Source of the DNA: Solirubrobacteraceae bacterium | GTDB lineage: Bacteria > Actinomycetota > Thermoleophilia > Solirubrobacterales > Solirubrobacteraceae | DNA length: 31,922 nucleotides | Direction of reading: 5' to 3' | NCBI GenBank assembly: GCA_035547175.1 | Contig: DASZVK010000097.1 | Span: 1 to 31,922 of the forward strand | Part shown: one piece after another, positions 2,929 to 19,084 of the stretch | Layout: each line of letters opens with the position of its first letter | How positions within the stretch are numbered: position 1 is the first letter of the stretch | Program-made: the position numbers and the translations under genes | Notes under the pieces: generated by a model | The model's input: the letters and a program-made list of their open reading frames with translations, nothing else | Told to the model about the DNA's origin: nothing | Database searches by the model: none

Positions 2929-2958
2929 TTGACGACGATCATAATTCCGTTATACGAT
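2929..2958 (+). promoter_or_regulatory. Promoter/operator P2 (TTGACG with TATACG/TACGAT), copy 2 of the shared motif
   Basis: AT-rich intergenic TTGACGACGATCATAATTCCGTTATACGAT; -35 TTGACG with TACGAT at 18-bp spacing; also a CGTCA-T-TGACG dyad at 2924-2934. Confidence 0.7.
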
Positions 2959-2975: not shown

Positions 2976-3866
2976 TTGACGCCGCGCATCTCGGTCTCGC
3001 AGATCTCGACATTCCGATCGTCCTTCGCCGACGACGTCCGCGACTACGCCGCGGCCGGGCTCGACGGCATCGGCATCTGGGAGATGAAGCTGCCCGACGG
3101 CGGCGACGCCGAGTCGCTCGAGCTGCTCGAGGCCAGCGGGCTCGAGCGCGCCTCGGCGGTCACGGCCGTGCCGTCGATCCTGCCGATGCCGCTGCTCGGC
3201 CCGCCCGACGACCCCGCCGAGCGCCTGCACGCCTACTGCGCGTCGCTCGAGCGCCTCGCCGCCTTCGCGCCGGCCGCCGTTGTCTGCGTGACCGGCAGCG
3301 GCGCCGGGCGCGACCCCGACGAGGCGCGCTCGATCGTCGTCGAGGGCCTGCGGACGATCGGCGCCGAGGCCCAGCGCCTCGGCCTGCGCATCGCGCTGGA
3401 GCCCTACCAGCGGATCGACGGCGAGCCGTGGTCGATCGTCTTCTCGATCCCGGAGGCGATCGAGCTGCTGCGCGACGCGGGCGACCCGCCGGCGATCGGC
3501 ATCCAGTTCGACGTCTGGCACCTGTGGAACACGCCGACGCTATTCGACGACATCGCCTCCGAGATCGGCCGCTTCGCCGGCGTCCACGTCTGCGACTACC
3601 GCGACCCGCCGCGCGCCTGGGCCGACCGCGCGCTGCCCGGCGAGGGCGTCGCCGGCGTCCCGGCGATCCTGGCGGCGCTCGACGCCGCGGGCTGGGACGG
3701 CCTCTACGACGTCGAGATCTTCTCCGACGACGGCACGTTCGGAACCGAGCTGCCCGACTCCCACTGGGCCGCGCCGGCGCTCGAGACGCTGGCCCGCGCC
3801 CGCGATGCAGTGCGCCGGAGCCTTTCGCCGGCTCTAAACCAACCAACCAAGGACGAGGTGACATGA
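2976..3866 (+). CDS. Sugar phosphate isomerase/epimerase (xylose-isomerase-like TIM barrel, IolE-like), 296 aa
   Basis: Metal-ligand pattern LRIALEP...QFDVWH...HVCD...DVEIFS; LPGEG motif; TTG start. Confidence 0.8.
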   Translation: MTPRISVSQISTFRSSFADDVRDYAAAGLDGIGIWEMKLPDGGDAESLELLEASGLERASAVTAVPSILPMPLLGPPDDPAERLHAYCASLERLAAFAPAAVVCVTGSGAGRDPDEARSIVVEGLRTIGAEAQRLGLRIALEPYQRIDGEPWSIVFSIPEAIELLRDAGDPPAIGIQFDVWHLWNTPTLFDDIASEIGRFAGVHVCDYRDPPRAWADRALPGEGVAGVPAILAALDAAGWDGLYDVEIFSDDGTFGTELPDSHWAAPALETLARARDAVRRSLSPALNQPTKDEVT

Positions 3867-5053
3867 GGAGAGGACGCAGGAAGAGCGCCGCCGCGGTGCT
3901 CGCGATCGCGGCGATCGGCGCCGTCGGCGCCGTCGCGGCGACGAGCAGCAGCGCTGCGTCGACGCCGATCACGATCGGATGGGCGTACGACGCCACCGGG
4001 TCGATGGCGCCGTTCGACATGCCGGCGCTCGCCGCGGCGCAGCTGCGGGTCAAGCAGATCAACGCCAAGGGCGGCGTCAGCGGCCATCCGCTGAAGATCG
4101 CCACGTGCAAGACGCAGGGCAACAAGCCGGCGGTGGCCAAGGCGTGCGCGCTGAAGCTGATCAGCGGCGGCGCCAAGGTCGTCTTCTCGACGTGCGACGT
4201 CGACCTCGGCGCCCCCGTCGTGCAGGAGGCGATCAACCGCGGCATCCTCGCGGTCTCGCCGTGCATCGGCACCGACCAGATGGGCCCCAAGCGCTTCGGC
4301 AAGAAGGGCGCGCTGGCGTTCAGCTACGGCAACGTCGCCCAGGACGAGGGCTCGGCCATGGCCGACTTCGCGTGGAGCAAGGGCTGGAAGACGGCCGCGC
4401 TCGCGACCGACGGCGTGATCGTCTACTTCAAGGACGTCGTCGCCGCGTTCAAGGCCCGCTTCCAGCAGCTCGGCGGCAAGATCGCCGACGAGGAGACCTA
4501 CCACTCGCTCGGCGGCCACGACGTCAACAACACGATCAGCCGCCTGCAGGGCGTCAAGGCCGACGTGATCGTGACGGCGACGGCGGGCGCGTTCGGCGCG
4601 CTCTCGACGCTCGTCTCGGGCCTGCGCAGCGCCGGCGACAACACCCCGATCCTCAACTCGTGGGCGGGCGACGGCACGTACTGGCTGCCCAAGAGCCCGG
4701 CGGTGACCAACTACTGGTACGTCACGTTCGCGTCGGTCTTCGGCGACGACCCCAACCCGACGGTCAAGGCGATGGCCAAGCAGATCAAGGCGGCGACCGG
4801 CGGCTTCGTCACCGGCCCGGCGGCGATCGACGGCGTCGCGACCGCGATCCGCAGGGCGCACGGCTCGACCGACGGCGCCAAGCTGGCGTCGATCATGCAG
4901 TCCTTCAAGGACGTGTCGACGCTCTCCGGCGAGGTGAGCTTCTCGTCGAAGTGGCATACGGTGTTCGGACGCCAGTACCGGGTGATGAGCATCAACGACA
5001 ACAAGGCGAAGTTCGTCAAGCTCATCAGGGCCAAGGTCGTCCCGACGATCTGA
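3863..5053 (+). CDS. ABC transporter substrate-binding protein, LivK/Peripla_BP_6 type, 396 aa
   Basis: Basic-hydrophobic signal peptide, ITIGWAYDATG, INAKGGVSG; ATGA overlap with upstream stop; followed by LIV ATPases and permeases. Confidence 0.88.
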   Translation: MRRGRRKSAAAVLAIAAIGAVGAVAATSSSAASTPITIGWAYDATGSMAPFDMPALAAAQLRVKQINAKGGVSGHPLKIATCKTQGNKPAVAKACALKLISGGAKVVFSTCDVDLGAPVVQEAINRGILAVSPCIGTDQMGPKRFGKKGALAFSYGNVAQDEGSAMADFAWSKGWKTAALATDGVIVYFKDVVAAFKARFQQLGGKIADEETYHSLGGHDVNNTISRLQGVKADVIVTATAGAFGALSTLVSGLRSAGDNTPILNSWAGDGTYWLPKSPAVTNYWYVTFASVFGDDPNPTVKAMAKQIKAATGGFVTGPAAIDGVATAIRRAHGSTDGAKLASIMQSFKDVSTLSGEVSFSSKWHTVFGRQYRVMSINDNKAKFVKLIRAKVVPTI

Positions 5054-5054
5054 G

Positions 5055-5825
5055 TTGACGGCGCTCGCCTCAGCCGACGCGCAGCGGACGCCCGGGGAGA
5101 TCCTCCGGGCGTCCGCCGTGTCGCGCTCGTTCGACGGCGTGCAGGCGCTGCGCGGCGTCGACCTGGAGCTGGGGCGGGGCCACGTCGTCGGCCTGATCGG
5201 CCCCAACGGGGCCGGCAAGTCCACGCTCGTCAACGTGCTCAGCGGCTTCGACCGCCCCGACGAGGGCAGCGTCGCGCTCGGCGACCAGGACCTGACGAGC
5301 TGGCCACCCCACCGGCGCGGCCGCCACGGCCTCGCCCGCACCTTCCAGCACAGCCACGGGTTCCGCGCGCTGTCGGTGCGCGAGAACGTCGAGGTCTCGG
5401 CGCTCGGCGTCGGCGCCGGCCCGCGCGAGGCGGCGCGGCGCGCGAGCGCGCTGCTGGCCCGGCTCGGCCTCGACCGCTACGCCGACGCGCCCGCCGCCGC
5501 GCTGCCCCAGGGCGACGAGCGCCGCCTCGGCGTCGCCCGCGCGCTCGCCACCGAGCCGCGCTTCGTGCTGCTCGACGAGCCCGCCGCCGGGCTGCCCGAG
5601 GCCGAGGTCCCGGACTTCGCCGCGCTGGTCCGCTCGATCGCCGGCGAGCACGGGGCCGGCGTGCTGCTGATCGACCACAACATGGCGCTGATCATGGAGA
5701 CCTGCGACCACATCGTCGTGCTCGATCATGGGCAGGTGCTGGCCGGCGGCTCCCCCGAGCAGATCCGCTCCAACCTCGACGTCGCGGCCGCCTACCTCGG
5801 CGAGTCGCCGGTGCACGAGGCATGA
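5055..5825 (+). CDS. ABC transporter ATP-binding protein (LivG-like)
   Basis: Walker A GPNGAGKST, RTFQ, Walker B VLLDEPAAG, IDHNM; signature degenerate (LPQGD). Confidence 0.92.
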   Translation: MTALASADAQRTPGEILRASAVSRSFDGVQALRGVDLELGRGHVVGLIGPNGAGKSTLVNVLSGFDRPDEGSVALGDQDLTSWPPHRRGRHGLARTFQHSHGFRALSVRENVEVSALGVGAGPREAARRASALLARLGLDRYADAPAAALPQGDERRLGVARALATEPRFVLLDEPAAGLPEAEVPDFAALVRSIAGEHGAGVLLIDHNMALIMETCDHIVVLDHGQVLAGGSPEQIRSNLDVAAAYLGESPVHEA

Positions 5826-6523
5826 GCCTGCGGGTCGAGGGGCTGCGCGTGCGCTACGGCGGCGTCGAGGCCGTCCGCGAGCTGTCGCTGTCGGTGGCGC
5901 CGGGCGAGATCGTCTCGCTCGTCGGGCCCAACGGCGCCGGCAAGTCCTCGACGCTGCACGCGATCATGGGCCTCGCCCCGGCGAGCGGCAGCGTGCGCGT
6001 CGGCGAGCGCGAGCTGATCGGCGCGCAGCCCGAGGACATCGCCCGCGCCGGCGTGGCGCTCGTGCCCGAGAGCCGGCGCATCTTCGCCGAGCTGACCGTC
6101 GAGGAGAACCTGCGGCTGGGCCTCGCGGCGCGGCGCGCCAGGGGCGGCGAGCTCGAGCTGCTGGACTCGATCGTCGAGCTCTTCCCGATCGTCGGCCGGT
6201 TCCGCGCCCGCCACGCCGGCGCGCTCTCCGGCGGCCAGCAGCAGCAACTCGCGATCGCGCGCGCGCTCGCGGCCGAGCCCGACGTGATCCTGCTCGACGA
6301 GCCCTCGCTGGGCCTCGCGCCGCTGATCGTCGACGCGGTCTTCGACGCGCTGGCCGCGATCCGCGACCGCGGCCTCGCCGTGCTGCTCGTCGAGCAGCGC
6401 GCGCAGCGCGCCGTGGCCGCGGCGAGCCGCAGCCACGTCCTGGCCGGCGGCGTCGTGCGCGCGCAGCTGGGCCCGCAGGACGCGGGCGACCTCGACCGCC
6501 TCGTGGGGAGCTACCTGTCGTGA
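5822..6523 (+). CDS. ABC transporter ATP-binding protein (LivF-like)
   Basis: GPNGAGKSS, LTVEENL, LSGGQQQQLAIARAL, ILLDEPSLGLAP, LLVEQ. Confidence 0.93.
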   Translation: MSLRVEGLRVRYGGVEAVRELSLSVAPGEIVSLVGPNGAGKSSTLHAIMGLAPASGSVRVGERELIGAQPEDIARAGVALVPESRRIFAELTVEENLRLGLAARRARGGELELLDSIVELFPIVGRFRARHAGALSGGQQQQLAIARALAAEPDVILLDEPSLGLAPLIVDAVFDALAAIRDRGLAVLLVEQRAQRAVAAASRSHVLAGGVVRAQLGPQDAGDLDRLVGSYLS

Positions 6524-7410
6524 GCTTCACCTGGCAGACGCTCGCCGACGGCCTCTCGCTCGGCGCGATCTACGCGCTGATGGCGGTCGGCATCGGCCTC
6601 GTCTTCGGCGTGCTGCGGCTGGTCAACTTCGCCTACGGCCAGCTCGTCATGGCCGGGGCGTTCGCCCTGGCGATGGCCTCCCAGTGGGGCTGGCCGGTGT
6701 GGGCCGGGATCGTCCTCTGCTTCGCCGTGGTGCTCGTGCTGTCGGTGCTCATGGAGCGGCTCGTCTTCCGGCCGCTGCGCGGTCACGCGCCGGCGGTGAT
6801 GCTCGTCGCGACGTTCGCGGTCGCCTTCCTGCTGGAGAGCATCGCGCTGCTGTGGTTCGGCTCGCTGGGCAAGACCGCGGCGTCGCTGGCGACGCTCAAC
6901 CAGCCGTGGACGATCCTCGGCGTCGAGATCCGCAGGATCGCGATCGTCGCGATCCTCGTCGCCGCGGCCGCGCTGGTCGGCCTGCGGCTGCTGATCGACC
7001 GCACCTCGATCGGCCTGCACATGCGCGCCGCGTCGATGGACTTCTCGACCGCGCGGATGCTCGGCGTGCGCGCCAACCGCGTGATCTTCTTCGCGGTGCT
7101 GCTGTCCGGCGTGCTCGCCGCGATCGTCGCCGTGATGCTGACCGTGCAGACGCCGCTGGTGACGCCGGACTTCGCGCTCAACGACACGATCGTCGTGCTC
7201 GCCGGCGTCGTCGTCGGCGGGCTGAACCGGATCGTCCCGGCCACGCTCGGCGGCTTCCTGATCGGGTTCGTCAGCGGCCTGCTCGGCGGGGCGCTGCCGA
7301 CCGACCAGAGCCAGTACCTGCCGACGTTCGTGTTCGCCGCCGTGATCCTCGTGCTGTTGGTCCGCCCGCGCGGGCTGTTCGACCTCTCCCGCACCGTGGA
7401 GCGCGTGTGA
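6520..7410 (+). CDS. Branched-chain amino acid type ABC permease (LivH-like), 296 aa
   Basis: GLSLGAIYALMAVGIGLVFGVLRLVNFAYG, GLHMRAAS, ARMLGV, VVVGGL; GTGA overlap. Confidence 0.92.
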   Translation: MSFTWQTLADGLSLGAIYALMAVGIGLVFGVLRLVNFAYGQLVMAGAFALAMASQWGWPVWAGIVLCFAVVLVLSVLMERLVFRPLRGHAPAVMLVATFAVAFLLESIALLWFGSLGKTAASLATLNQPWTILGVEIRRIAIVAILVAAAALVGLRLLIDRTSIGLHMRAASMDFSTARMLGVRANRVIFFAVLLSGVLAAIVAVMLTVQTPLVTPDFALNDTIVVLAGVVVGGLNRIVPATLGGFLIGFVSGLLGGALPTDQSQYLPTFVFAAVILVLLVRPRGLFDLSRTVERV

Positions 7411-8468
7411 GGCGCGGCGCGGAGCTGAGCGGGCTCGCCCTGCCGCTGGCGCTGGTCGCCGCCACGGCGCTGCTCGGCGCGCTCGTCTCGCAGTCCTCGC
7501 AGACGTACTTCACCGACGCGCTGGTCAACGTCGCGATCGTCACCGCGCTGTACGTGTTCGTCGGCAACTCCGGGGTGCTGTCGTTCGGCCACATCAGCTT
7601 CGTCGCGCTGGGCGCGTGGACGGCGGGCGTGCTGTCGGTGCCGGTCGCCGAGAAGCCGGCGACGATGCCCGGCCTCGCGCACTTCCTCGCCGCCACGCAC
7701 GTCGCCAACGTCCCGTCGCTCGCGCTCGCGGCGCTCGTCGGCGGCGTCGTCGCGCTGGTCGTCGGCTTCCCGCTGACGCGCCTGTCCGGGCTGTCCGCCG
7801 GCATCGCCACGTTCGCGGTGCTGGAGATCACCCACAACCTGCTCCAGTACGAGACGGCGCTCGGCCCCGGGACCAACACCTTCTCCTCGGTGCCGGAGAC
7901 GACCGGGATGCTGCAGGGCGCGATCGGCGCCGGGATCTGCGTCGTCGCCGCGTTCCTGTACTCGCGCAGCCGCTGGGGCCGCCTGCTGCGCGCTACGCGC
8001 GAGGACGCCGCGGCCGCCCGCGCGATCGGCGCCTCGATCCACGTCCAGCGCCTGATCGCCTTCACGCTCTCGGGCGCGCTCGCCGGCCTCGCCGGCGGCC
8101 TCTACATCCACCTGCTGCCGCTCAGCATCGACTCGGTCTTCCTCGACCTGACGTTCATCACGCTCGCGATGCTGGTCGTCGGCGGGTCGGGCAGCCTGCT
8201 GGGCGCCGTCGTCGGCGCGCTCCTGGTCAGCGCGGTCGACTCGTGGTTCTCGCTGGCCGAGAACGGCACCTCGCTGTTCGGCTGGCACGTCGACGTCCCC
8301 TCGGGCACGACCCAGATCATCGTCGGGACGGCGATGGCGGCGGTCCTGATCTTCCGTCCCTCGGGCATCATCGGCCCAGGGGCGATCCGCCTGCCCGGCC
8401 TGCGCAGGGCCGGGTCGGCCGCCGACGGGCAACCGACTCCCACCGAGGGGCATCCAACTCCCAACTAA
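7407..8468 (+). CDS. Branched-chain amino acid type ABC permease (LivM-like), 353 aa
   Basis: GNSGVLSFGHISF, SRWGRLLRATRED, MLVVGGSGSLLG, RPSGIIG; GTGA overlap. Confidence 0.9.
   Translation: MRRGAELSGLALPLALVAATALLGALVSQSSQTYFTDALVNVAIVTALYVFVGNSGVLSFGHISFVALGAWTAGVLSVPVAEKPATMPGLAHFLAATHVANVPSLALAALVGGVVALVVGFPLTRLSGLSAGIATFAVLEITHNLLQYETALGPGTNTFSSVPETTGMLQGAIGAGICVVAAFLYSRSRWGRLLRATREDAAAARAIGASIHVQRLIAFTLSGALAGLAGGLYIHLLPLSIDSVFLDLTFITLAMLVVGGSGSLLGAVVGALLVSAVDSWFSLAENGTSLFGWHVDVPSGTTQIIVGTAMAAVLIFRPSGIIGPGAIRLPGLRRAGSAADGQPTPTEGHPTPN
8427..8467 (+). repeat. Imperfect 21-bp-period tandem repeat in the LivM-like C-terminal tail
   Basis: GGGCAACCGACTCCCACCGA (8427) vs GGGCATCCAACTCCCAACTA (8448), 16/20 identical; encodes GQPTPTE/GHPTPN. 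Confidence 0.5.
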
Positions 8469-8481
8469 GACAAGGAGCACC

Positions 8482-9282
8482 ATGTCGATCGAGTCCAGCA
8501 ACGCGACCACGGCCCTCCTGGCGGGCCTCGCCGACGGGTCCGTGCGCGTCGTCGACCTCACGCAGCCCCTGAGCGAGAGCACGCCGGTGCTGATCCTGCC
8601 CGAGCCGTTCGCGAACACGCCGAAGCTCTCGCGCCGCACGCTCAGCCGCTACGACGAGGCCGGGCCGGCGTGGGCCTGGGACGTGCTCGAGATCGGCGAG
8701 CACCACGGCACGCACTTCGACGCGCCGATCCACTGGATCAGCGGCCGCGACGGCAAGGACGTGGCGTCGGTCGACCCGAGCCGCCTCGTCGGCCCCGCGA
8801 TCGTGATCGACAAGTCCGCGCAGGCCGCCGCCGACCCCGGCTACCTGCTGACGGTCGCCGACCTCGAGGCCTTCGAGGACGAGCACGGGCGCATCCCCGA
8901 TGGCGCCTGGGTGCTGTTCCGCTGCGGCTGGGACGCGCGCGCCCACGACGAGGCGGCGTTCCTCAACGCCGGCCCGGACGGGCCGGTCACGCCGGGGCCC
9001 GACGTCGAGGCCTCCCGGTGGCTGGGCACCGAGCGCGGGATCTCGGGCTTCGGCGTCGAGACCGTCGGCATCGACGCCGGCGCCGCCGGCGGCTTCGACC
9101 CCGTCTACCCGCTGCACAACTACCTGCTCGGCAACGACCGCTACGGCCTCACGCAGCTCGCCAACCTCGGTGAGCTGCCGCCGACCGGCGCGGTGATCGT
9201 CGTGGCGCCGCTGAAGCTCGTCGACGGCACCGGCGCCCCGACCCGCGCGCTGGCGCTGGTCCCGGCGGAGAGGCAGGGCTGA
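8482..9282 (+). CDS. Cyclase-family metal-dependent amidohydrolase (isatin hydrolase / kynurenine formamidase fold), 266 aa
   Basis: HxGTHxDxPxH motif (EHHGTHFDAPIHW), VVDLTQPL, GVETVGID, GTGAPTRALA; AAGGAG RBS. Confidence 0.9.
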   Translation: MSIESSNATTALLAGLADGSVRVVDLTQPLSESTPVLILPEPFANTPKLSRRTLSRYDEAGPAWAWDVLEIGEHHGTHFDAPIHWISGRDGKDVASVDPSRLVGPAIVIDKSAQAAADPGYLLTVADLEAFEDEHGRIPDGAWVLFRCGWDARAHDEAAFLNAGPDGPVTPGPDVEASRWLGTERGISGFGVETVGIDAGAAGGFDPVYPLHNYLLGNDRYGLTQLANLGELPPTGAVIVVAPLKLVDGTGAPTRALALVPAERQG

Positions 9283-9285
9283 GCG

Positions 9286-11454
9286 ATGGCCGAGCGGTCG
9301 TTCGCCAACGAGGTCCAGGTGCTGCGCGAGGGCGCCGGGACGACGCTGCACGTCGAGGGCATCCTCGCCGTCACCAAGGCGCTGCTGCAGTCCGGCGTCG
9401 CCTACGTCGGCGGCTACCAGGGCGCGCCGATCTCGCACCTGATGGACGTGCTCGGCGACGCGCAGGAGATCCTCGCCGAGCTCGGCGTGTACTTCGAGAA
9501 CAGCGCGTCGGAGGCGACGGCCTCGGCGATGCTCGCCGCGTCGGTGCACTATCCGCTGCGCGGCGCGGTGACCTACAAGTCGACGGTCGGCCTCAACGTC
9601 GCCTCCGACGCGCTGGCCAACCTCTCCAGCGGCGGCGTCACCGGCGGCGCGCTGGTGATCCTCGGCGAGGACTACGGCGAGGGGTCGAGCATCATGCAGG
9701 AGCGCGCGCACGCGTTCGCGATGAAGTCGCAGATGTGGCTGCTGGACCCGCGCGTCGACGTGCCGACGATCGTGCAGGCCGTCGAGACGGGCTTCGAGCT
9801 CTCCGAGGCGTCGCACACGCCGGTGATGCTCGACCTGCGCCTGCGCTCCTGCCACGTGCACGGCAGCTTCGTCGCCAAGGACAACGTGCGCCCGCCGATG
9901 ACGGTCAAGCAGGCGATGGAGAACCCGGTCCGCGCCGTCGACCGCATCGTGCTGCCGCCGGCGAGCTTCCTGCACGAGAAGGAGAAGATCGCCGAGCGCT
10001 GGCCCGCGGCCGTGCGCTTCATCTCCGAGCGCGGGCTCAACGAGGTCTTCGCCGACGGCGCGGCCGACGTCGGGATCATCACCCAGGGCGGGCTCTACAA
10101 CACGCTCAACCGCTCGCTCGAGCTGCTCGGCTGCTCGGATCCCTATGGCCGCACGAAGCTGCCGCTGTACGTGATGAACGTGACCTATCCCGTCGTCGAG
10201 GAGGAGGTCGTCGCGTTCTGTGCCGGCAAGCGCGCGGTGCTGCTGCTCGAGGAGGGCCAGCCCGACTACATCGAGCAGAGCCTCAGCGCGATCCTGCGCC
10301 GCGCCGGCCTCGACACGGCGCTGCACGGCAAGGACATGCTGACGATGGCCGGCGAGTACACGACGACCGTCATCACGCGCGGGCTGTCGGCGTTCCTGCG
10401 GCGCCACCTGCCCGACGCGATCGAGCACGAGCCGGCGCTGCTGCGCGACGCGGACGACCCGGCGAGCCCGTTCGCGCCGCGCGTCGCGCCGCAGGTCGTC
10501 GGCGCGCGCGCCCCCGGCCTGTGCACCGGCTGCCCCGAGCGGCCGATCTTCAGCGGGCTCAAGCTCGCCGAGCGCGAGACCGGCAGGCACCACGTCAGCG
10601 CCGACATCGGCTGCCACCTGTTCGCGATCAACGCGCCGTTCGAGATCGGCGCGACGACGATGGGCTACGGCCTCGGCTCGGCCGGGGCGGCGGCGCTGTC
10701 GGCCAAGGACGCCGACCGGCCGAGCATCGCGATCATGGGCGACGGCGGCTTCTGGCACAACGGCCTGACCAGCGGCGTCGGCAACGCCGTCTTCAACGAG
10801 AGCCCACAGGTCGTCACGATCGTCGACAACAACTACGCCGCGGCGACCGGCGGCCAGGACCTGCTGTCCTCGAAGGCGCCGCTGCCGACCCGCTCGACGC
10901 AGCACCCGATCGAGAAGGCCGTGCGCGGCGTCGGCGTCGAGTGGGCGCGGACGATCGACGACACCTACGACGTCGGCGCGGTGCGCGACGCCTGGCTCGA
11001 CGCGCTGACCGCCGAGCAGCCGGGGCCGAAGGTGCTCGTCATGCAGAGCGAGTGCCAGCTCAACCGCCAGCGGCGCGTCCGCCCCGAGACGGCCAAGGCG
11101 CTCAAGCAGGGCAAGCGCGTCGTGCGCGAGCGCTTCGGCGTCGACGCCGAGACGTGCACCGGCGACCACGCCTGCATCCGCATCTCGGGCTGCCCGTCGC
11201 TGTCGATCAAGGCCAACCCCGACCCGATGCGCACCGACCCGGTGGCGACGGTCCTGTCGAGCTGCGTCGGCTGCGGCGTCTGCGGCGCCAACGCGCACGC
11301 GGCCGTGCTGTGCCCGTCGTTCTACCGGACCGACGTCGTCCACAACCCGACGCTGAGGGACCGGCTGCTCGCGCGCGTGCGCGCGTGGTGGATCCGCGTC
11401 GCGTCTCGCGGGATCGAGCGTCGCGCCGCGCGCTTCGAGCCGGTCGCGACCTGA
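9286..11454 (+). CDS. iorA: Indolepyruvate:ferredoxin oxidoreductase alpha subunit-like (TPP, Fe-S), 722 aa
   Basis: GYQGAP, KSTVGLNVASD, GLCTGCPER, DIGCH, TPP motif GDGG...DN...TGGQ, C-terminal ferredoxin-type Cys clusters (CTGDHAC..GCP; CVGCGVC..LCP). Confidence 0.9.
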   Translation: MAERSFANEVQVLREGAGTTLHVEGILAVTKALLQSGVAYVGGYQGAPISHLMDVLGDAQEILAELGVYFENSASEATASAMLAASVHYPLRGAVTYKSTVGLNVASDALANLSSGGVTGGALVILGEDYGEGSSIMQERAHAFAMKSQMWLLDPRVDVPTIVQAVETGFELSEASHTPVMLDLRLRSCHVHGSFVAKDNVRPPMTVKQAMENPVRAVDRIVLPPASFLHEKEKIAERWPAAVRFISERGLNEVFADGAADVGIITQGGLYNTLNRSLELLGCSDPYGRTKLPLYVMNVTYPVVEEEVVAFCAGKRAVLLLEEGQPDYIEQSLSAILRRAGLDTALHGKDMLTMAGEYTTTVITRGLSAFLRRHLPDAIEHEPALLRDADDPASPFAPRVAPQVVGARAPGLCTGCPERPIFSGLKLAERETGRHHVSADIGCHLFAINAPFEIGATTMGYGLGSAGAAALSAKDADRPSIAIMGDGGFWHNGLTSGVGNAVFNESPQVVTIVDNNYAAATGGQDLLSSKAPLPTRSTQHPIEKAVRGVGVEWARTIDDTYDVGAVRDAWLDALTAEQPGPKVLVMQSECQLNRQRRVRPETAKALKQGKRVVRERFGVDAETCTGDHACIRISGCPSLSIKANPDPMRTDPVATVLSSCVGCGVCGANAHAAVLCPSFYRTDVVHNPTLRDRLLARVRAWWIRVASRGIERRAARFEPVAT

Positions 11455-13118
11455 TGTCGAGCTGGTCCGAGGGGCGCCGGCCGATCACGCTCGCCATCCT
11501 CGCCCTCGGCGGCGAGGGCGGCGGCGTGCTGGCCGACTGGATCGTCGCGCTCGCCGAGCACGGCGGCTGGACGGCGCAGAACACGTCGGTGGCGGGCGTC
11601 GCCCAGCGCACCGGCGCCACCGTCTACTACGTCGAGATGCTGCCGCCGCCGGGCGAGGGCGACCCGCGGCCCGCCGCCCTCGGCGAGGGCCGCGCCGCGC
11701 CGGTGATGAGCATCTTCCCCACCCCCGGCGAGGTCGACGTCGTCATCGCCTCCGAGCTGATGGAGTCCGGGCGCGCGATCCAGCGCGGCTTCGCGACGCC
11801 CGACCGCACGACGCTGATCGCCTCGACCAGCCGCGTCTACTCGATCGACGAGAAGATGGCGCTCGGCGACGGCCGCGTCGACGGCGCCGAGCTGCTGGCG
11901 GCCGCCGCGCGCTCCTCCAAGCGGCTCGTCGCCGCCGACTTCGCCAGGCTCGCCGAGCAGGCGGGCACGGTCATCAGCGCGTCGCTGTTCGGCGCGCTGG
12001 CCGGCTCGGGCGCGCTGCCCTTCGCGCGCGAGCAGTTCGAGGAGCGCATCCGCGCCTTCGGCAAGGGCGTCGAGGCGTCGCTGGCGGGCTTCGCCGCCGG
12101 CTACGAGGCGGCGACCGCCGAGCCGCCGCGGCCCGCCGCCGAGCCGGCCACCTCCGCGGCGCTGCCGATCACCGCCTGGCCGCCGGGCGACGCGCCCGCG
12201 CCGCTCGACGACGAGGAGGCGGCCAAGGAGGCCGAGGAGCGGCGCCGCAACGAGATCGCCGCCGCCGACCCGGCGTCGCTCGTCGGCCCGGACCTGCGCG
12301 AGCTCGCGCAGCGCGTCGCCGAGCTGCCCGCGGCGTCGCGCTCGATGGCGCTGCACGGCATCGTCCGCACCGCCGTCTACCAGGACGTCGCCTACGCCGA
12401 GCGCTACCTCGAGCGCCTCGGCCGCTTCGCCGCGGTCGAGCCCGACCCCGGCGGGGCCGCCGCGCTGACGACCGAGGCGGCGCGCCACGTCGCGCTGTGG
12501 ATGGCCTACCAGGACACGATCCACGTCGCGCTGCAGAAGACCCGCCAGCAGCGCATGGAGCGCATCCGCGACGAGGCCCGGGCGCGTCCGGGCGATCTCG
12601 TCGAGGTGCGCGAGTTCCTGCATCCGCAGATCGACGAGATCACCGACACGATGCCCTCGCGGCTCGGCGCGCGGCTGCGCGAGGCGCGCTGGTTCGGCGG
12701 CCTCGTCCACCGGCTCACGCACAAGGGGATGATCCTCAACACCAGCTCGGTGTGGGGCTACACGCTGCTGAGCACGCTGGCGCGCATGCGGCCGCTGCGA
12801 CCGCGCTCGCTGCGCTTCGTGCGCGAGCAGGCGGCGATCGAGGCCTGGCTCGAGCAGGCGCTGGCGGCCGCCGAGGCCGACCCCGAGCTCGCCCGCGAGA
12901 TCGTCGAGTGCCAGCGCGTGCTCAAGGGCTACGGGGCGACGCACGCGCACGGCTCGGAGAGCTTCGCGAAGCTGATGGCGGCGGCCCGCTCGCTGGTCGG
13001 CGAGCCCGGCGCCGCCGGTCGCCTGGCGGCGCTGCGCGACGCGGCGCTGGCCGACGAGGACGGCAGGGCCCTGGACGCGGCGCTCGCCGCGCCGGCGCAG
13101 ACGGGCGAGGGCGGCTAG
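11454..13118 (+). CDS. iorB: Indolepyruvate oxidoreductase beta subunit family protein, long form with C-terminal extension, 554 aa
   Basis: ALGGEGGGVLADW, GVAQRTGAT, VDVVIASELME; C-terminal domain with CQRVLKGYG; TGATG overlap with iorA. Confidence 0.88.
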   Translation: MSSWSEGRRPITLAILALGGEGGGVLADWIVALAEHGGWTAQNTSVAGVAQRTGATVYYVEMLPPPGEGDPRPAALGEGRAAPVMSIFPTPGEVDVVIASELMESGRAIQRGFATPDRTTLIASTSRVYSIDEKMALGDGRVDGAELLAAAARSSKRLVAADFARLAEQAGTVISASLFGALAGSGALPFAREQFEERIRAFGKGVEASLAGFAAGYEAATAEPPRPAAEPATSAALPITAWPPGDAPAPLDDEEAAKEAEERRRNEIAAADPASLVGPDLRELAQRVAELPAASRSMALHGIVRTAVYQDVAYAERYLERLGRFAAVEPDPGGAAALTTEAARHVALWMAYQDTIHVALQKTRQQRMERIRDEARARPGDLVEVREFLHPQIDEITDTMPSRLGARLREARWFGGLVHRLTHKGMILNTSSVWGYTLLSTLARMRPLRPRSLRFVREQAAIEAWLEQALAAAEADPELAREIVECQRVLKGYGATHAHGSESFAKLMAAARSLVGEPGAAGRLAALRDAALADEDGRALDAALAAPAQTGEGG

Positions 13119-13948
13119 TGGCCAACGGCAACGGCTTCCCCCCGCGCGCCCTGCTGCTGACCGTGCTGGGCGCCTACGTGCGGCGGCTCGACGAGTGGAT
13201 CTCGATCGCCGGGCTGATCCGGCTGATGGACGAGCTCGGCGTCGACGAGCAGTCGGTGCGCTCGGCCGTCTCGCGCTTCAAGCGCCGCGGGATCGTCGTC
13301 CCCGAGCGCCGCGGCGGGGCGGCCGGCTACCGGATGAGCGAGTCGGGGCACCGGCTGCTGGAGGAGGGCGACGCGCGGATCTACGGTCGGCCGCGGGCGG
13401 CGCTGCTCGACGACGGCTGGGTCCTCGCCGTCTTCTCGGTGCCGGACTCCAAGCGCGCCGACCGCCACGCGCTGCGCTCGCTGCTGGCCTGGCTGGGCTA
13501 CGGGAACCTGTCCTCGGCGGTCTGGATCGCCCCGTGGCACGTCGAGGCCGAGACGCGCGAGGCGCTCGTCCGCCGCGGCCTGGCCGGCTACGTGCAGATG
13601 TTCCGCGCCCACTACGAGGCGTTCGGCACGCCCGCCGACCTCGTCGCGCAGTCGTGGGACCTCGCCGAGCTGCGAGCCCGCTACGTGGCCTTCCAGCGGG
13701 CGGCCGCGCCGATGGCGAGGCGCTGGCGCTCGCAGACGCCCGGCGGCCGCGACGCGTTCGTCGACCACGTGCTCGTGCTGTCGGAGTGGCGGCCGCTGCC
13801 GTTCCTCGACGCGGGCCTGCCGGTCGAGGCGCTGCCGCGCGACTGGCCCGGCCCGCGCGCGTGGGAGACGTTCCACGGGCTGGTCGAGCGGCTCGAGGGC
13901 CCGGCGTTCGACTACGTCCGCGAGGCGATCGGCGATGCGGCCAAATAG
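13118..13948 (+). CDS. paaX: PaaX-family transcriptional regulator, 276 aa
   Basis: LLLTVLGAY, SVRSAVSR wHTH, WVLAVFSVP, LGYGNL...VWIAP, WDLAEL, DAGLPVEALPRDWPG; TAGTG overlap. Confidence 0.9.
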   Translation: MANGNGFPPRALLLTVLGAYVRRLDEWISIAGLIRLMDELGVDEQSVRSAVSRFKRRGIVVPERRGGAAGYRMSESGHRLLEEGDARIYGRPRAALLDDGWVLAVFSVPDSKRADRHALRSLLAWLGYGNLSSAVWIAPWHVEAETREALVRRGLAGYVQMFRAHYEAFGTPADLVAQSWDLAELRARYVAFQRAAAPMARRWRSQTPGGRDAFVDHVLVLSEWRPLPFLDAGLPVEALPRDWPGPRAWETFHGLVERLEGPAFDYVREAIGDAAK

Positions 13949-13959
13949 GTAGTGCTGTG

Positions 13960-13987
13960 TTGACGACCGTCACAGAGACGCTATGTT
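13960..13987 (+). promoter_or_regulatory. Promoter/operator P3 (TTGACG-N16-TATGTT), copy 3 of the shared motif
   Basis: TTGACGACCGTCACAGAGACGCTATGTT, containing a perfect dyad TGACG-AC-CGTCA over the -35. Confidence 0.7.
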
Positions 13988-14015
13988 TGGAGCTGCGATG
14001 GCGATGCGCCCGGGG

Positions 14016-16379
14016 ATGAGGATCGCGGTGTCCGGCGGAGGACCCGCCGGCCTGTACTTCGCGATCCTCATGAAGCGCTCCCAGCCGGCGCACGAGATCA
14101 CCGTCTGGGAGCGCAACGCGCCCGACGACGCGTTCGGCTTCGGCGTCGTCTTCTCCGACGAGACGCTGACCGTCTTCGAGCACGCCGACCCGGAGAGCTA
14201 CGCGGCGATCACCGAGCAGTTCGCGCGCTGGACGGACATCGACATCCACCTGCGCGGCCAGGTGATCACCTCCGGCGGCCACGGCTTCGCCGCGCTCGGC
14301 CGGCGAGCGCTGCTGGGCATCCTCCAGCGTCGCGCGCTCGAGCTCGGGGTGACGATCCACTTCAACGCCGAGACGCCGCCCTACGAGGAGCTCGCCTCGC
14401 ACGACCTCGTGCTCGCCGCCGACGGCCTCAACAGCGCCCTGCGCCACCGCTTCGCCGAGACGTTCCGGCCGTCGCTGGACCCGCGCCGCTGCCGCTACAT
14501 GTGGCTCGGCACGGACCTCGTCTTCGACTCCTTCAAGTTCTTCGTCAAGGAGACCGAGCACGGCATCGTCCAGGTCCACGGCTACCCCTACGACGCGACG
14601 ATGAGCACGTTCATCGTCGAGGCCGGCGAGCGCTTCTGGCAGGGCGCCGGCCTGGACGCGATCGCGACCGAGGGCCTCGGCCCGGGCGAGAGCGACGAGG
14701 CGAGCATCGCCTTCTGCGCCGAGCTGTTCGCCGACGAGCTCGGAGGCCACGCGGTCGTGTCCAACAACTCCAAGTGGCTGCGCTTCACGACGGTCCGCAA
14801 CGAGCGCTGGCGCCACGAGAACGTCGTCCTGATCGGCGACGCCGCGCACACCGCGCACTTCTCGATCGGCTCAGGGACGAAGCTGGCGATGGAGGACGCG
14901 GTCGCGCTGGCGTGGGCCTTCCACGAGAACGGCGACGACCTCGACGCCGCCGTCGCCGCCTACGAGGCCGAGCGGCGCCCGATCGTGGAGAGCACCCAGC
15001 GCGCCGCCCAGGCCAGCCTCGAGTGGTTCGAGGGCATCGACCGCTACGCCGGCCAGGACGCGCTGCAGCTCGCCTTCAACCTGCTCACGCGCAGCCGCCG
15101 GATCACGCACGCGGAGCTGACGCTGCGCGACGCGCCGTTCGTGCGCCGCGTCGAGGAGGAGGCGCTCGACGCGCGGGTGGGCGGGCACGAGGTCGACGGC
15201 CGCATGCCGCCGCCGATGTTCACGCCGCTGCGCCTGCGCGACGTCGAGCTGGCCAACCGCGTCGTCGTCTCGCCGATGGACATGTACTCGGCCGTCGACG
15301 GCGTTCCCGGCGACTTCCACCTCGTCCACCTGGGCAGCCGCGGCCAGGGCGGCGCCGGCCTGGTCATGACCGAGATGGTCTGCGTCTCGGCGCGCGGGCG
15401 GATCACCCCCGGCTGCACCGGCCTCTACGCGCCCGAGCACCTGCCCGCGTGGAGGCGGATCGTCGACTACGTCCACGCCCACGGCGGCGCGCGGTTCGGC
15501 TGCCAGATCGGCCACTCGGGGCGCAAGGGCTCGACGAAGCGGATGTGGGAGGGCATCGACCAGCCGCTCGAGGACGGCAACTGGCCGCTGATCGCGCCCT
15601 CGCCGCTGCCCTACTACGCCCACAGCCAGGTCCCGCGCGAGATGACGCGGGCGGACATGGACGAGGTCCGCGACCAGTTCGTCGCCTCGGCGCGGATGGC
15701 GGCCGAGGCGGGCTTCGACCTGCTCGAGGTCCACGCCGGCCACGGCTACCTGCTGTCGTCGTTCCTCTCGCCGCTGACCAACCGCCGCACGGACGAGTAC
15801 GGCGGCAGCCTCGAGAATCGCGCCCGCTTCGTGCTCGAGGTGTTCGACGCCTGCCGCGCCGTCTGGCCCGAGCATCTGCCGATGTCGATGCGGATCTCGG
15901 CGACCGACTGGGCGCCGGGCGGCTTCGACGGCGACGACGCGGTCGCCTTCGCGCGCATGCTCAAGCAGCACGGCTGCGACCTCGTCGACGTGTCCACGGG
16001 CCAGGTCGTCCACGACCAGCGGCCCGCCTTGGGGCGCAGCTTCCAGACGCCGTTCGCCGACCGGATCCGCAACGAGGTCGGCATCCCGGTGATCGCGGTC
16101 GGCGCGATCTCGTCCTACGACGACGTCAACACGATCATCCTCGCCGGCCGCGCCGACCTGTGCGCGCTCGGCCGCCCGCACCTCTACGACCCGCATTGGA
16201 CGCTGCACGCGGCGGCCGAGCAGGAGTGGCCCCACGTCGCCTGGATCTCGCCCTACCAGGCCGGCCGTCGCCGGCCGGTGACGGGCAAGGACGCGGCCGC
16301 CAAGCCGGCCCCGCGCACGTTCGCCGGGCCCGCCGCCGAGCCGCAGCCGACGCTGTCCCGCCCGCCGATCGAAGCCTAG
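14016..16379 (+). CDS. Bifunctional 2-aminobenzoyl-CoA monooxygenase/reductase or salicylyl-CoA 5-hydroxylase/oxidoreductase (FAD monooxygenase fused to Old Yellow Enzyme domain), about 787 aa
   Basis: [45 protein letters not shown]; OYE half [50 protein letters not shown]; alternative ATGs at 13983/13998/14004. Confidence 0.9.
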
Positions 16380-16389: not shown

Positions 16390-16809
16390 TTGCCCGACCA
16401 CGAGATCGTCAACCCGCCCTCGCTGCCCAAGCCGTCGGGCTTCAGCCACGGCGTGCGCGCCGGCGACGTCGTCCACCTCGCCGGCCAGACGGCGCTGGAC
16501 GCGGACATGAGGATCGTCGGCGAGACGATCGTCGAGCAGTTCCGCCAGGCGCTGGGCAACGTGCTGACGACGCTGCTCGAGGCCGGCGGCGAGCCGCGGG
16601 ACCTCGTCAGCCTGACGATCTACCTCACCGACGTCGCCGACTACCAGCGCCACGGCCGCGAGATCGGCGCCGTCTACCGCGAGCTGATCGGCGACTGGTA
16701 CCCGGCGATGGCCGGGATCGGCGTCACCGGGCTCTGGCAGCCCGAGGCGCTGATCGAGATCCAGGGCGTCGCCGTGATCCGCCAGCCCAGCCCCACCGAT
16801 CCCGCCTGA
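16390..16809 (+). CDS. RidA/YjgF family protein, 139 aa
   Basis: PSGFSHG, LAGQT, PAM..., LIEIQGVA; TAGGAG RBS before TTG. Confidence 0.88.
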   Translation: MPDHEIVNPPSLPKPSGFSHGVRAGDVVHLAGQTALDADMRIVGETIVEQFRQALGNVLTTLLEAGGEPRDLVSLTIYLTDVADYQRHGREIGAVYRELIGDWYPAMAGIGVTGLWQPEALIEIQGVAVIRQPSPTDPA

Positions 16810-16835: not shown

Positions 16836-17270
16836 ATGTCCGACACCATCAGCGAGGCCGTCCCGGTCGTCACCCGCGCCGGCCACGAGGACCAGCAGAC
16901 CGGTCAGTCCGGCGGCTGCGTGCGCGTCTCCGGCGTCGGCCCGCAGCACACGCCGGCGACGAGGATCTGGTTCGGCCGCGTCAGCAACGAGCCCGGCTAC
17001 CGCTCGCTGCCCCACCACCACGGCGAGGCCGAGACCGGCGGCTACGTGCTCAAGGGCGTCGGGCGCATCTACTACGGCGAGGGCTACCGCACGTGGGTCG
17101 AGATGACCGAGGGCGACTTCGTCTTCGTGCCGCCGCACATGCCCCACGTCGAGTGCAACATGAGCACGACCGACGAGCTGGTGTGGCTGACGTGCCGCAC
17201 GCCCGACAACATCGTCGTCAACCTGCCCGACGTCGAGGACTCCGAGCTGGAGGGGTACCGGCGAGCATGA
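16836..17270 (+). CDS. Cupin domain protein, 144 aa
   Basis: PHHHGEAET and GDFVFVPPHMPHVE cupin motifs; GGAGGAG RBS. Confidence 0.88.
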   Translation: MSDTISEAVPVVTRAGHEDQQTGQSGGCVRVSGVGPQHTPATRIWFGRVSNEPGYRSLPHHHGEAETGGYVLKGVGRIYYGEGYRTWVEMTEGDFVFVPPHMPHVECNMSTTDELVWLTCRTPDNIVVNLPDVEDSELEGYRRA

Positions 17271-18130
17271 CCGCCATGCCGATGCTGGCCGCGCTCGAGC
17301 TGCGGCCGGTGGGCGAGGCGTCCTTCGAGGCCACGCCCCAGCGCGTCCCCTGGCCGAAGGCGTACGGCGGCGACCTGGTCGCCGCCGCGCTCGCCGCCGC
17401 CGACCGGACCGTCGAGCCGGGCCGCGCCGTGCACTCGATGCACAGCTACTTCATGCGCCCGGCCGAGATCCTGCAGCCGGTCCGCTACGACGTCGAGGTC
17501 CTGCGCGACGGACGCTCCTACGGCACGCGCGAGGTGCGGGCGTTCCAGGACGACAGGCTGATCTACATCGCGCTGGTCTCCTACCACGTGCGCGAGCGAG
17601 GGCTCGCGCACCAGGCGCAGATGCCCGACGTCCCGGAGCCGGAGTCGCTGCCCTCCAGCGCGCAGGCGCTCGCGGGCGTCGAGGGCCCGGCGGCCGACTA
17701 CTGGTCGCACGACCGCAGCTTCGACATGCGCCACATCCCCTCGCCGGTGTACCTGAGCGTCGAGGGCGAGCACACGGGCCAGCAGGCGCTGTGGCTGAGG
17801 TCGTTCGGCCCGCTGGCCGACGATCCCGCGCTGCACCGGGTCGCGCTCGCCTACGCCTGCGACTACACGATCCTCGAGCCGGTCCTGCGCGCCCACGGCT
17901 ACGCGTGGATGGACGACGGCCTCGTGACCGCGAGCCTCGACCACGCGATGTGGTTCCACCGCGACGGCCGCGTCGACGACTGGGTGCTCTACGTCCAGAA
18001 CGCGGAGTCCGCCCAGGACGGACGCGGGCTGGCGCGCGGGCACTTCTTCTCGCGCGACGGCGTCCACATCGCGACGGTCCTGCAGGAGGGCGTGATCCGC
18101 ACCCCGGCCGCGGCGACCGCCGGCCGCTAG
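17267..18130 (+). CDS. Acyl-CoA thioesterase II (TesB-like double hotdog), 287 aa
   Basis: YGGDLVAAAL, HSMHSYF, RDGRSY, YACDYTIL, ASLDHAMWFHR; ATGA overlap. Confidence 0.88.
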   Translation: MTAMPMLAALELRPVGEASFEATPQRVPWPKAYGGDLVAAALAAADRTVEPGRAVHSMHSYFMRPAEILQPVRYDVEVLRDGRSYGTREVRAFQDDRLIYIALVSYHVRERGLAHQAQMPDVPEPESLPSSAQALAGVEGPAADYWSHDRSFDMRHIPSPVYLSVEGEHTGQQALWLRSFGPLADDPALHRVALAYACDYTILEPVLRAHGYAWMDDGLVTASLDHAMWFHRDGRVDDWVLYVQNAESAQDGRGLARGHFFSRDGVHIATVLQEGVIRTPAAATAGR

Positions 18131-18139: not shown

Positions 18140-19084
18140 GTGGACTTCGGCGTCTTCCTGCCCGTGTCGGGCCGCGCAGCGAGCCGCGGCGGCCTGACCC
18201 ACGCGGCGCGCAAGGCCGAGGAGCTGGGCTTCACGGCGGTCTGGGCCGCCGACCGGATCGTGATCCCGTGGAGGATCGAGACGACCTACAACTACAACTG
18301 GTCGGGGCAGTTCTTCGTGCCGCCCGAGGCGGCGTTCCTCGAGCCGCTGACGGTCCTCGCGTTCCTCGCCGGGGCGACCGAGAGGATCCGCCTCGGCGTC
18401 AGCGTGCTCGTCGGCCCGTACCGCGACCCGGTGTACTGGTCGAAGGTCGTCGCCTCGATCGACCAGCTCTCGGAGGGACGCTTCGTCCTCGGCTTCGGCG
18501 TCGGCTGGATGCCGGAGGAGTTCGCCGCGCTGGGCAGGGCGGAGCACTTTGCGCCGCGCGGCAGGGTCGCCGACGAGCAGCTCGCGATCTTCAGGACGCT
18601 GACGCGCGACGAGCACGCCAGCCACGACGGCGAGTTCTTCGCCTTCGACGACGTCGCCTTCCAGCCCAAGGGCTTCCGCGGGCCGGGCTCGATCCCGGTG
18701 TGGGTCGGCGGCGAGGCCAGGCCCTCGCAGCGCCGCGCCGGCCGCGCCGGCGACGCCTGGTTCCCGTACTTCCCGCGCGTGACGCCCGACGAGCTGGCCC
18801 GCCGCTACGCCTACGTGCTCGAGACGGCCGAGGCCGCCGGGCGCGACCCGCACGACGTCGCGCTGCACTGCTGCCTGTCGGTCGAGGTCACGCCCGAGCC
18901 GGTCGAGCAGGAGCCCGACCTCCTGCGCGGCAGCCCCGAGCAGGTCGTCGAGCGCCTGGCCGCGTTCGCCGAGGTCGGCGTGCAGCACTGCGCGCTGCAG
19001 TTCCTCGTCGGCCGCTACCCCGAGCGCGTCGAGCAGATGGAGCGCTTCGCCGCGCAGGCGCGGGCCGACGGGCTGCTCGGGTAG
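18140..19084 (+). CDS. LLM-class oxidoreductase, probably F420-dependent (Rv2161c/TIGR03619-like), 314 aa
   Basis: AEELGFTAVWAADRIVIP, EPLTVLAFLAGATERIRLG, IDQLSEGRFVLGFGVGWMPEEF, QPKG, GSPEQV. Confidence 0.85.
   Translation: MDFGVFLPVSGRAASRGGLTHAARKAEELGFTAVWAADRIVIPWRIETTYNYNWSGQFFVPPEAAFLEPLTVLAFLAGATERIRLGVSVLVGPYRDPVYWSKVVASIDQLSEGRFVLGFGVGWMPEEFAALGRAEHFAPRGRVADEQLAIFRTLTRDEHASHDGEFFAFDDVAFQPKGFRGPGSIPVWVGGEARPSQRRAGRAGDAWFPYFPRVTPDELARRYAYVLETAEAAGRDPHDVALHCCLSVEVTPEPVEQEPDLLRGSPEQVVERLAAFAEVGVQHCALQFLVGRYPERVEQMERFAAQARADGLLG

Follow-up and report, generated by a model that had tools for sequence, protein, structure and literature searches.

An isatin hydrolase homolog encoded with an IorAB-type oxidoreductase in a Solirubrobacteraceae contig suggests an ATP-independent route to 2-aminobenzoyl-CoA

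How could an aryl-coenzyme A (aryl-CoA) thioester be made where no ligase gene accompanies the enzyme expected to use it? This question is raised by contig DASZVK010000097.1 from the genome of a soil actinobacterium of the family Solirubrobacteraceae (GenBank assembly GCA_035547175.1), a stretch of 31,922 nucleotides that we call the window. It carries a gene for a cyclase-family protein, followed by genes for two subunits, IorA and IorB, of an enzyme that resembles indolepyruvate:ferredoxin oxidoreductase (IOR) and, farther on, a gene for a monooxygenase of a CoA thioester-dependent family. The reading that we favor, with a probability of roughly 0.6, is that the cyclase-family protein and IorAB would form a two-step module, from isatin, which arises when indole and auxin are broken down, to isatinate and from isatinate to 2-aminobenzoyl-CoA, in which no ATP is spent. 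All support for IorAB as an isatinate:acceptor oxidoreductase comes from comparative genomics.

The window is the entire contig C97 of a 2.7-Mb assembly of 412 contigs that is 92.6% complete, and no sequence to its left is available for inspection. Its GC content is 73%. Genes were called from a third-position GC frame plot together with Pfam and NCBIfam scans.

Results

A predicted isatin hydrolase gene adjoins genes for an IorAB-type oxidoreductase

Three genes in this window are at issue (TPP, thiamine pyrophosphate):

8482 to 9282, plus strand: predicted isatin hydrolase (cyclase family, Mn type), 266 amino acids; PF04199 at E 7e-40 and matches to isatin hydrolase structures
9286 to 11454, plus strand: IorA-like TPP/[4Fe-4S] subunit of the IadA type, 722 amino acids; TPP_enzyme_C domain
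11454 to 13118, plus strand: IorB-like subunit of the IadB type, 554 amino acids; Pfam POR and DUF6537 domains, NF006179

The contiguity claimed in the original prediction can be read directly from the sequence. The stop codon of the cyclase gene (TGA, 9280 to 9282) is followed by GCG and then by the ATG of IorA at 9286, a gap of 3 nt, and IorA and IorB have one base in common (TGATG, 11452 to 11456). The IorA and IorB frames are backed by third-position GC values of 0.95 to 0.99, and the families of all three proteins were confirmed by both Pfam and NCBIfam.

The cyclase-family protein matches, over its full length, solved isatin hydrolases from Ralstonia solanacearum (5NMP, E 7e-81) and Labrenzia aggregata (4J0N, 5e-75; 5NNA, 6e-73). 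Kynurenine formamidases are matched at an E value of only about 5e-6, which rules out that they are its family. In the L. aggregata enzyme LaIHA, the metal and catalytic residues are the ligands His69, His73, and Asp75; His79; the Asp193-His207 dyad; and Gln219, the fourth ligand (PMC6117287). Six of these seven are kept, as H74, H78, D80, H84, D198, and H212. Gln219 aligns with T224, with Q225 next to it, and isatin hydrolase B has Ala at this position. Because of the full-length matches and the conserved residues, we file the protein as a predicted isatin hydrolase. The source genome holds a second cyclase-family gene (G000:C129:6577-7113).

The product of isatin hydrolase, isatinate (2-aminophenylglyoxylate), is a 2-oxoacid, and the gene that begins 3 nt farther on appears to encode a 2-oxoacid oxidoreductase, a juxtaposition that speaks for the proposed module. 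IorA has a GDGG...N TPP motif at residues 485 to 516 and 12 cysteines (positions 189, 413, 416, 443, 590, 624, 630, 636, 660, 663, 666, and 676) that are invariant or nearly so among 63 homologs and are enough for three [4Fe-4S] clusters. A sequence search with IorA against the PDB gave no match. In an AlphaFold model of IorB (predicted local distance difference test score, 83), residues ~1 to 220 match the gamma subunits PorC and OorC and domain III of pyruvate:ferredoxin oxidoreductase. The C-terminal half, DUF6537 (residues ~250 to 554; 12200 to 13118), is confidently predicted to be all helical and has no PDB match by Foldseek; it may serve, for example, in acceptor docking.

Given the TPP motif, the 12 cysteines, and the fold of IorB, IorAB has the appearance of a functional 2-oxoacid:acceptor oxidoreductase of the IOR lineage. 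By its scores, it lies outside the characterized IOR equivalog groups: IorA reaches 253 bits on TIGR03336 (IOR-alpha equivalog; cutoff, 651), and IorB reaches 22 bits on TIGR03334 (IOR_beta equivalog; cutoff, 206) and 699 bits on NF006179 (PRK08312, "IorB family protein"; cutoff, 348). The earlier statement that IorAB is not a true indolepyruvate enzyme agrees with both equivalog scores.

Isatin hydrolase and IorAB genes are linked in two phyla

A scan of species-representative genomes yielded 43 actinobacterial loci with IorB relatives, whose neighbor genes were clustered and represented by sequences scanned against Pfam and NCBIfam. The loci include those of Rhodococcus, Nocardia, Hoyosella, Skermania, Pseudonocardia, Terrabacter, Leucobacter, Patulibacter, and many metagenome-assembled genomes of Solirubrobacterales. 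IorA of the window is 73 to 82% identical to nearly all actinobacterial homologs and is thus unusually conserved. The recurrent partners in the 43 loci are as follows (ACMR, 2-aminobenzoyl-CoA monooxygenase/reductase):

Isatin hydrolase: about 22 loci (within 10 kb)
RidA: 18 loci
PaaX-like regulator: at least 14 loci, including R. opacus
ACMR-type hydroxylase: at least 12 loci
CrtI-like flavoprotein: at least 12 loci
Ligase of the benzoate-CoA ligase family: 11 loci

The isatin hydrolase-IorAB module occurs in at least five gene arrangements. The hydrolase gene lies directly upstream of IorAB on the same strand in 14 loci (the window counted), convergently downstream in 6, divergently upstream in 1, and a few kilobases away in 2.

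We constructed a maximum-likelihood tree of 63 IorA sequences. A branch with 100/100 support parts a clade of 49 sequences, actinobacterial and iad-type Burkholderiales (described below), from 14 Burkholderiales paralogs. Of the 49 clade members, 28 have an isatin hydrolase gene no more than 10 kb from IorA; of the 14 sequences in the sister clade, none does. When labels were shuffled, 1 of 500 shuffles needed as few changes as the observed linkage, a kind of count that relatedness inflates. The linkage is above chance, and since the arrangements vary and the linkage is found in two phyla, it argues for functional coupling despite the relatedness. The nearest relative of the window IorA in this tree comes from a Solirubrobacteraceae genome. 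A search of 40 relatives of the source genome found no IorB ortholog; therefore, the cluster is accessory in its lineage.

The module occurs in indole and auxin gene clusters

In Rhodococcus opacus, including strain 1CP, the gene order is CrtI-like flavoprotein, isatin hydrolase, IorA, IorB, PaaX-like regulator, aryl-CoA ligase, SDR, StyA-like monooxygenase, StyA-flavin reductase fusion, and DLH-SnoaL protein, with the PaaX-like gene between IorB and the ligase. In its genes, this locus corresponds to a cluster type described for the indole monooxygenase IndA1/IndA2B, formerly StyA1/StyA2B (PMC6165268, PMC13101518). The "indolepyruvate" genes in such clusters were already remarked on in a review (PMC6165268).

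In Hoyosella, Skermania, and R. spongiicola (L010, L011, and L042), the module stands beside an ACMR-type gene, and the same loci carry genes for a gentisate 1,2-dioxygenase-like bicupin, a FAH-family hydrolase, a maleate isomerase-like protein, and a 4HBT thioesterase. Together, these genes could account for the old indole-isatin-anthranilate-gentisate route; a 2018 review called the genes of that route unknown (PMC6221969). Several Solirubrobacterales loci add genes for acyl-CoA dehydrogenase, enoyl-CoA hydratase, hydroxyacyl-CoA dehydrogenase, and thiolase. Together with the ACMR-type gene, this beta-oxidation set presumably resembles the 2-aminobenzoyl-CoA cluster of Azoarcus.

Outside the actinobacteria, 41 of 301 Burkholderiales genomes searched have an IorB homolog. 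The loci with the closest IorA (63 to 67% identity) mostly carry a cyclase 45 to 50% identical to that of the window. In one of them (L079), whose IorA falls in the clade of 49, the order is MarR, IorA (67% identity), IorB with DUF6537, Rieske alpha, Rieske beta, AMP ligase, thiolase-like protein, DUF35-SDR, cyclase (48% identity), SDR, and binding protein. This is the order of the published iad locus, in which iadA and iadB are annotated as iorA and iorB, and iadI is annotated as cyclase family (PMC12852158). The iad pathway runs through indole-3-acetic acid (IAA), dioxindole, isatin, isatinate, and anthranilate, and iadA and iadB have been termed exclusive markers of iad-type loci (Conway et al., PMC9613470). 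In V. boronicumulans, IAA induces both IadA and IadB (PMC12852158). A Limnobacter locus (L040), considered as a bridge to the iad loci, proved not to be iad-like, and the "iad" names in Pseudomonas sp. LY1, which belong to a different, iac-like cluster, were set aside.

The iad papers that we found assign no function to IadA or IadB. Likewise, the papers found on bacterial indole and auxin degradation assign no enzyme to the step from isatinate onward, and our literature searches found no paper proposing that IorAB or IadAB converts isatinate to 2-aminobenzoyl-CoA.

The cluster is ligase-free in this assembly but not in all relatives

As stated in the original prediction, no AMP-binding ligase or CoA transferase is found among the called open reading frames of the window when these are scanned against Pfam. 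In 11 of the 43 actinobacterial loci, locus-linked ligases form one group with 53 to 97% mutual identity, whose best family match is benzoate-CoA ligase. An ortholog of this group is absent from the source assembly (the best match, at 30 to 35% identity, reflects generic AMP-binding similarity), and the ten AMP-binding genes that the assembly does contain are all on contigs other than the window; thus, as far as the assembly shows, the cluster is ligase-free. The proposal of a ligase-free route therefore holds for this assembly but fails as a general property, given those 11 loci. The coexistence of both routes in relatives is understandable wherever free anthranilate is formed by an IifA-like DLH oxygenase and isatin is a side or parallel product.

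Neighboring genes include a coupled PaaX-like regulator and an ACMR-type hydroxylase

The cluster is a densely packed series of plus-strand genes, and the cyclase, IorA, and IorB genes belong to the distal portion of a longer packed unit, which opens at 2976 with the TIM-barrel gene and continues with an ATP-binding cassette (ABC) transporter. The other features of the series are as follows (OYE, old yellow enzyme):

219 to 1328, plus strand: LLM-class oxidoreductase (frame plot, Pfam, and NCBIfam)
1355 to 2902, plus strand: CrtI/CrtO-like FAD oxidoreductase (Pfam Amino_oxidase and DAO matches)
2976 to 3866, plus strand: xylose isomerase-like TIM barrel (Pfam and NCBIfam)
4004 to 8468, plus strand: Liv-type ABC transporter, comprising a binding protein (4004 to 5053), two ATPases, and two permeases
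13118 to 13948, plus strand: PaaX-like transcriptional regulator (PaaX, PaaX_M, and PaaX_C domains)
13983 to 16379, plus strand: ACMR-type FAD-monooxygenase/OYE fusion, 798 amino acids (FAD_binding_3 and Oxidored_FMN domains; NF006101)
16390 to 16809, plus strand: RidA
16836 to 17270, plus strand: small cupin
17267 to 18130, plus strand: TesB-type thioesterase
18140 to 19084, plus strand: F420-type LLM oxidoreductase
165 to 192, 2929 to 2956 (plus strand), and 13960 to 13987: copies of a promoter-like motif, read directly from intergenic DNA

The PaaX-like gene belongs to the same translationally coupled string as IorAB, since its GTG start shares 1 nt with the IorB stop codon (TAGTG). The original prediction overlooked this gene and placed IorAB just upstream of the monooxygenase; the monooxygenase is indeed downstream, but not directly adjacent. 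On TIGR02277, the PaaX-like protein scores 143 bits against a cutoff of 265. PaaX-type regulators respond to a CoA thioester, and the regulator is probably an aryl-CoA sensor. Its coupling to IorB and the recurrence of PaaX-like genes in related loci suggest that some PaaX-family proteins sense an aryl-CoA different from phenylacetyl-CoA.

The three promoter-like sites have in common a TTGwCGwC box, an internal TCA, and a GyTAT box with matching spacing. They precede the LLM/CrtI unit, the unit from the TIM-barrel gene through the transporter, isatin hydrolase, and IorAB to PaaX, and the monooxygenase unit, respectively. This common pattern is consistent with joint regulation of the hydrolase/IorAB and monooxygenase units, and the sites may be operators of the PaaX-like regulator. 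The motif came from direct reading; a generic repeat-finder run did not recover it and returned only GC-rich noise.

The 798-amino-acid protein scores 1215 bits on NF006101 ("bifunctional salicylyl-CoA 5-hydroxylase/oxidoreductase"; cutoff, 1078). ACMR has what we take to be the same architecture of FAD monooxygenase plus OYE. This family membership makes the protein the proposed consumer of 2-aminobenzoyl-CoA.

For the CrtI/CrtO-like flavoprotein, the best NCBIfam match is the CrtO beta-carotene ketolase, far under the cutoff, and there is a distant PDB match to phytoene dehydrogenase. Homologs with 39 to 47% identity adjoin isatin hydrolase-IorAB genes in Rhodococcus, Nocardia, and Patulibacter loci. 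The protein is a candidate isatin-forming oxidase; it might, in the manner of a ketolase, oxidize 2-oxindole or dioxindole to isatin. We rejected an L-amino-acid oxidase that feeds a true IOR, since the best matches are of the CrtI/CrtO type and amino acid oxidases match in the dinucleotide fold only. Among the partners of IorAB, the CrtI-like gene, noted in the window and in L003, L018, L015, and L026, is also the most constant and is present even where an isatin hydrolase is lacking.

The small cupin may act in ring cleavage in the lower pathway. The same cupin type (65 to 86% identical) adjoins a FAH-family hydrolase in Nocardia and Pseudonocardia loci; in the window, a FAH-family homolog lies on the other strand at 29394 to 30182, 12 kb from the small cupin. 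Downstream of the cluster, at 21509 to 22336, is a gene for a two-domain protein of the glyoxalase/extradiol dioxygenase superfamily.

Discussion

Alternative readings of IorAB

Several observations weigh against an isatinate oxidoreductase. In the clade of 49 IorA sequences, 21 lack an isatin hydrolase gene within 10 kb, although several of these are on short contigs. Patulibacter-type loci (L015, L017, L021, L026, L027, and L043) have IorAB, with IorA about 80% identical, and no isatin hydrolase; they carry the CrtI-like gene, several SDRs, and genes for CMD-family, alpha/beta hydrolase, M24/creatinase-like, and hydantoinase B proteins, and they may represent a different lactam-opening route into the same oxidoreductase. 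The presence of an aryl-CoA ligase gene in 11 related loci means that IorAB is not a general ligase replacement, and, in the source genome, a ligase could be encoded on unassembled DNA. The cluster contains no gene for a ferredoxin or other acceptor, and the substrate specificity of IorAB and IadAB cannot be read from the sequence. Moreover, in Variovorax, a nine-gene iadC-K2 construct without iadA/B suffices for anthranilate (preprint, PMC12633357). In favor of the isatinate reading, the same work found strong accumulation of C7H7NO and of C8H7NO3, which has the formula of isatinate, in the iadC-K2 overexpression strain only (PMC12633357); accumulation of C8H7NO3 without iadA/B would be expected if IadAB normally consumes isatinate.

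One of the Patulibacter-type contigs, L017, is labeled uncultured Paraperlucidibaca (Moraxellaceae); it has 73% GC, and its IorA groups with Patulibacter and is 81% identical to that of the window. This contig is probably mis-binned actinobacterial DNA.

The loci without a hydrolase gene also bear on the idea that IorAB takes some other 2-oxoacid, produced by the LLM, CrtI-like, and TIM-barrel enzymes. An example would be a different ring-opened lactam or lactone such as 2-hydroxyphenylglyoxylate, converted to salicylyl-CoA, with the hydrolase acting on a substrate such as dioxindole or an O-analog. Such a scheme would suit the NCBIfam name of the downstream enzyme, the retention of IorAB and the CrtI-like gene in Patulibacter-type loci, the incomplete conservation of LaIHA Gln219, and the description of IadI as acting after C8H7NO2, possibly as a broad amidase (preprint, PMC12633357). 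We consider it unlikely, however, given the very strong similarity of the hydrolase to three assayed and solved isatin hydrolases. RidA and, in relatives, the ACMR and beta-oxidation gene set fit an amino-substituted ring, and the indole and auxin genes of relatives point to nitrogen heterocycles.

The family annotation itself would make IorAB a genuine arylpyruvate (indolepyruvate or phenylpyruvate) oxidoreductase that forms arylacetyl-CoA from an imported aromatic amino acid, leaving the isatin hydrolase as a merely co-located detoxifier. The Liv-type transporter upstream could import the amino acid, RidA and the amine oxidase-fold flavoprotein could serve its deamination, and, to our knowledge, phenylacetyl-CoA is the only known effector of a PaaX regulator, which also counts against a sensor of 2-aminobenzoyl-CoA. 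Against this stand the scores far under the IOR equivalog cutoffs, the CrtI/CrtO-like rather than amino acid oxidase-like flavoprotein, and a downstream enzyme family known for aroyl-CoA and not arylacetyl-CoA substrates. No aminotransferase or phenylacetate ring-oxygenase gene was identified in the window or in the scanned recurrent neighbor families of the 43 loci, and PaaA and PaaC were not found in the 92.6% complete source genome by a search whose control was positive in only 4 of 14 reference genomes. The conservation of the isatin hydrolase-IorAB linkage across two phyla also disfavors mere co-location, and we regard arylpyruvate as quite an improbable substrate. Far less probable is that IorAB has no role in catabolic carbon flow and supplies reduced ferredoxin from a common 2-oxoacid to pathway oxygenases. 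Related clusters do hold flavin or Rieske oxygenases in need of reductant, and no acceptor is encoded beside IorAB. Yet the window has neither a ferredoxin gene nor a Rieske oxygenase, the iad loci have their own reductase, IadC, and IorAB is tightly coupled to the hydrolase and not to an oxygenase, with a PaaX-type CoA ester sensor coupled to IorB.

A proposed pathway and its implications

The proposal that IorAB oxidizes isatinate thus draws on a module that is kept with indole, auxin, and ACMR-type genes in two phyla, and we infer the substrate, and with it the CoA product, from this gene context. An imported indole-derived compound would be converted to isatin, for which the CrtO-like flavoprotein and the LLM enzyme are candidates. 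The isatin hydrolase, a step with strong homology support, would open the lactam of isatin to give isatinate. IorAB, with TPP, would decarboxylate isatinate oxidatively and pass two electrons through its three [4Fe-4S] clusters to an acceptor, while CoA, bound by the N-terminal domain of IorB, would take the 2-aminobenzoyl group, yielding 2-aminobenzoyl-CoA and CO2. This thioester, probably the effector of the PaaX-like repressor, would relieve repression and would be hydroxylated or reduced by the ACMR-type enzyme, after which RidA, the cupin, and TesB would act.

At about even odds, we would extend this proposal to the whole DUF6537 IorA/IorB clade, including IadA/IadB. The clade would be a widespread CoA-acylating isatinate:acceptor oxidoreductase and the shared lower step of aerobic indole (Ind/Iif) and auxin (iad) catabolism, feeding ACMR-type hydroxylases and, in some actinobacteria, a gentisate branch, with PaaX-like sensors of 2-aminobenzoyl-CoA. 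If true, this would fill the isatinate step and give the iadA/iadB marker genes a function. Cells would be spared the ATP that an AMP-forming ligase consumes, and isatin chemistry would be joined to the 2-aminobenzoyl-CoA pathway as well as, in some actinobacteria, to gentisate, a branch that would explain the old indole-isatin-anthranilate-gentisate route. The assignment would also extend the IOR lineage to an arylglyoxylate substrate in aerobes and set right an automatic annotation that is very common: the window IorB is matched by at least 7,468 database proteins at an E value of 1e-20 or better.

Comparison with known systems

The predicted hydrolase of the window shares with the isatin hydrolases of L. 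aggregata and R. solanacearum its full-length homology, the HxxxHxD...H metal site, and the Asp-His dyad; it differs from LaIHA in having Thr at the Gln219 position and Gln one residue later. IorAB resembles indolepyruvate:ferredoxin oxidoreductase in its alpha/beta architecture, in the TPP motif and three predicted [4Fe-4S] sites of the alpha subunit, and in the gamma-domain fold of the beta subunit. In contrast, its beta subunit has 554 amino acids, with the helical DUF6537, whereas the canonical one has about 200 and consists of the gamma domain only. The contexts also differ, being isatin and aryl-CoA genes in the window and amino acid fermentation for the canonical enzyme.

The proposed chemistry is that of phenylglyoxylate:acceptor oxidoreductase from Azoarcus evansii (PadEFGHI), a TPP and iron-sulfur enzyme that converts an arylglyoxylate and CoA to an aroyl-CoA, CO2, and two electrons. 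PadEFGHI, an enzyme of an anaerobic pathway, is built of five subunits and represents the general 2-oxoacid:ferredoxin type. The window encodes only two subunits, of the IOR lineage and with DUF6537, and their relatives occur in aerobes; the link would thus be one of functional analogy and not of membership. A phenylglyoxylate oxidoreductase-type reaction carried out by a different, two-subunit lineage in aerobes would be new with respect to the papers that we found.

In the indole monooxygenase clusters (R. opacus 1CP; iif in Acinetobacter), the R. opacus locus has isatin hydrolase, IorAB, and PaaX genes beside SDR, IndA1-like, IndA2B-like, and DLH-like genes. StyA-like, SDR, and DLH genes are missing from the window, which thus has the lower module alone in common with the IndA1/IndA2B and iif clusters. 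With the iad loci of Variovorax, Achromobacter, and Bradyrhizobium, it shares three protein types, equivalent to IadA, IadB, and IadI, with DUF6537 in IorB and the IorA sequences in one clade of the tree. The rest of the IadF-J set, including the side chain removal genes IadF/G/H, is absent from the window, as are the Rieske genes IadDE and MarR. In their place, the window has the LLM, CrtI-like, and TIM-barrel genes upstream and the PaaX-like regulator and ACMR-type hydroxylase downstream.

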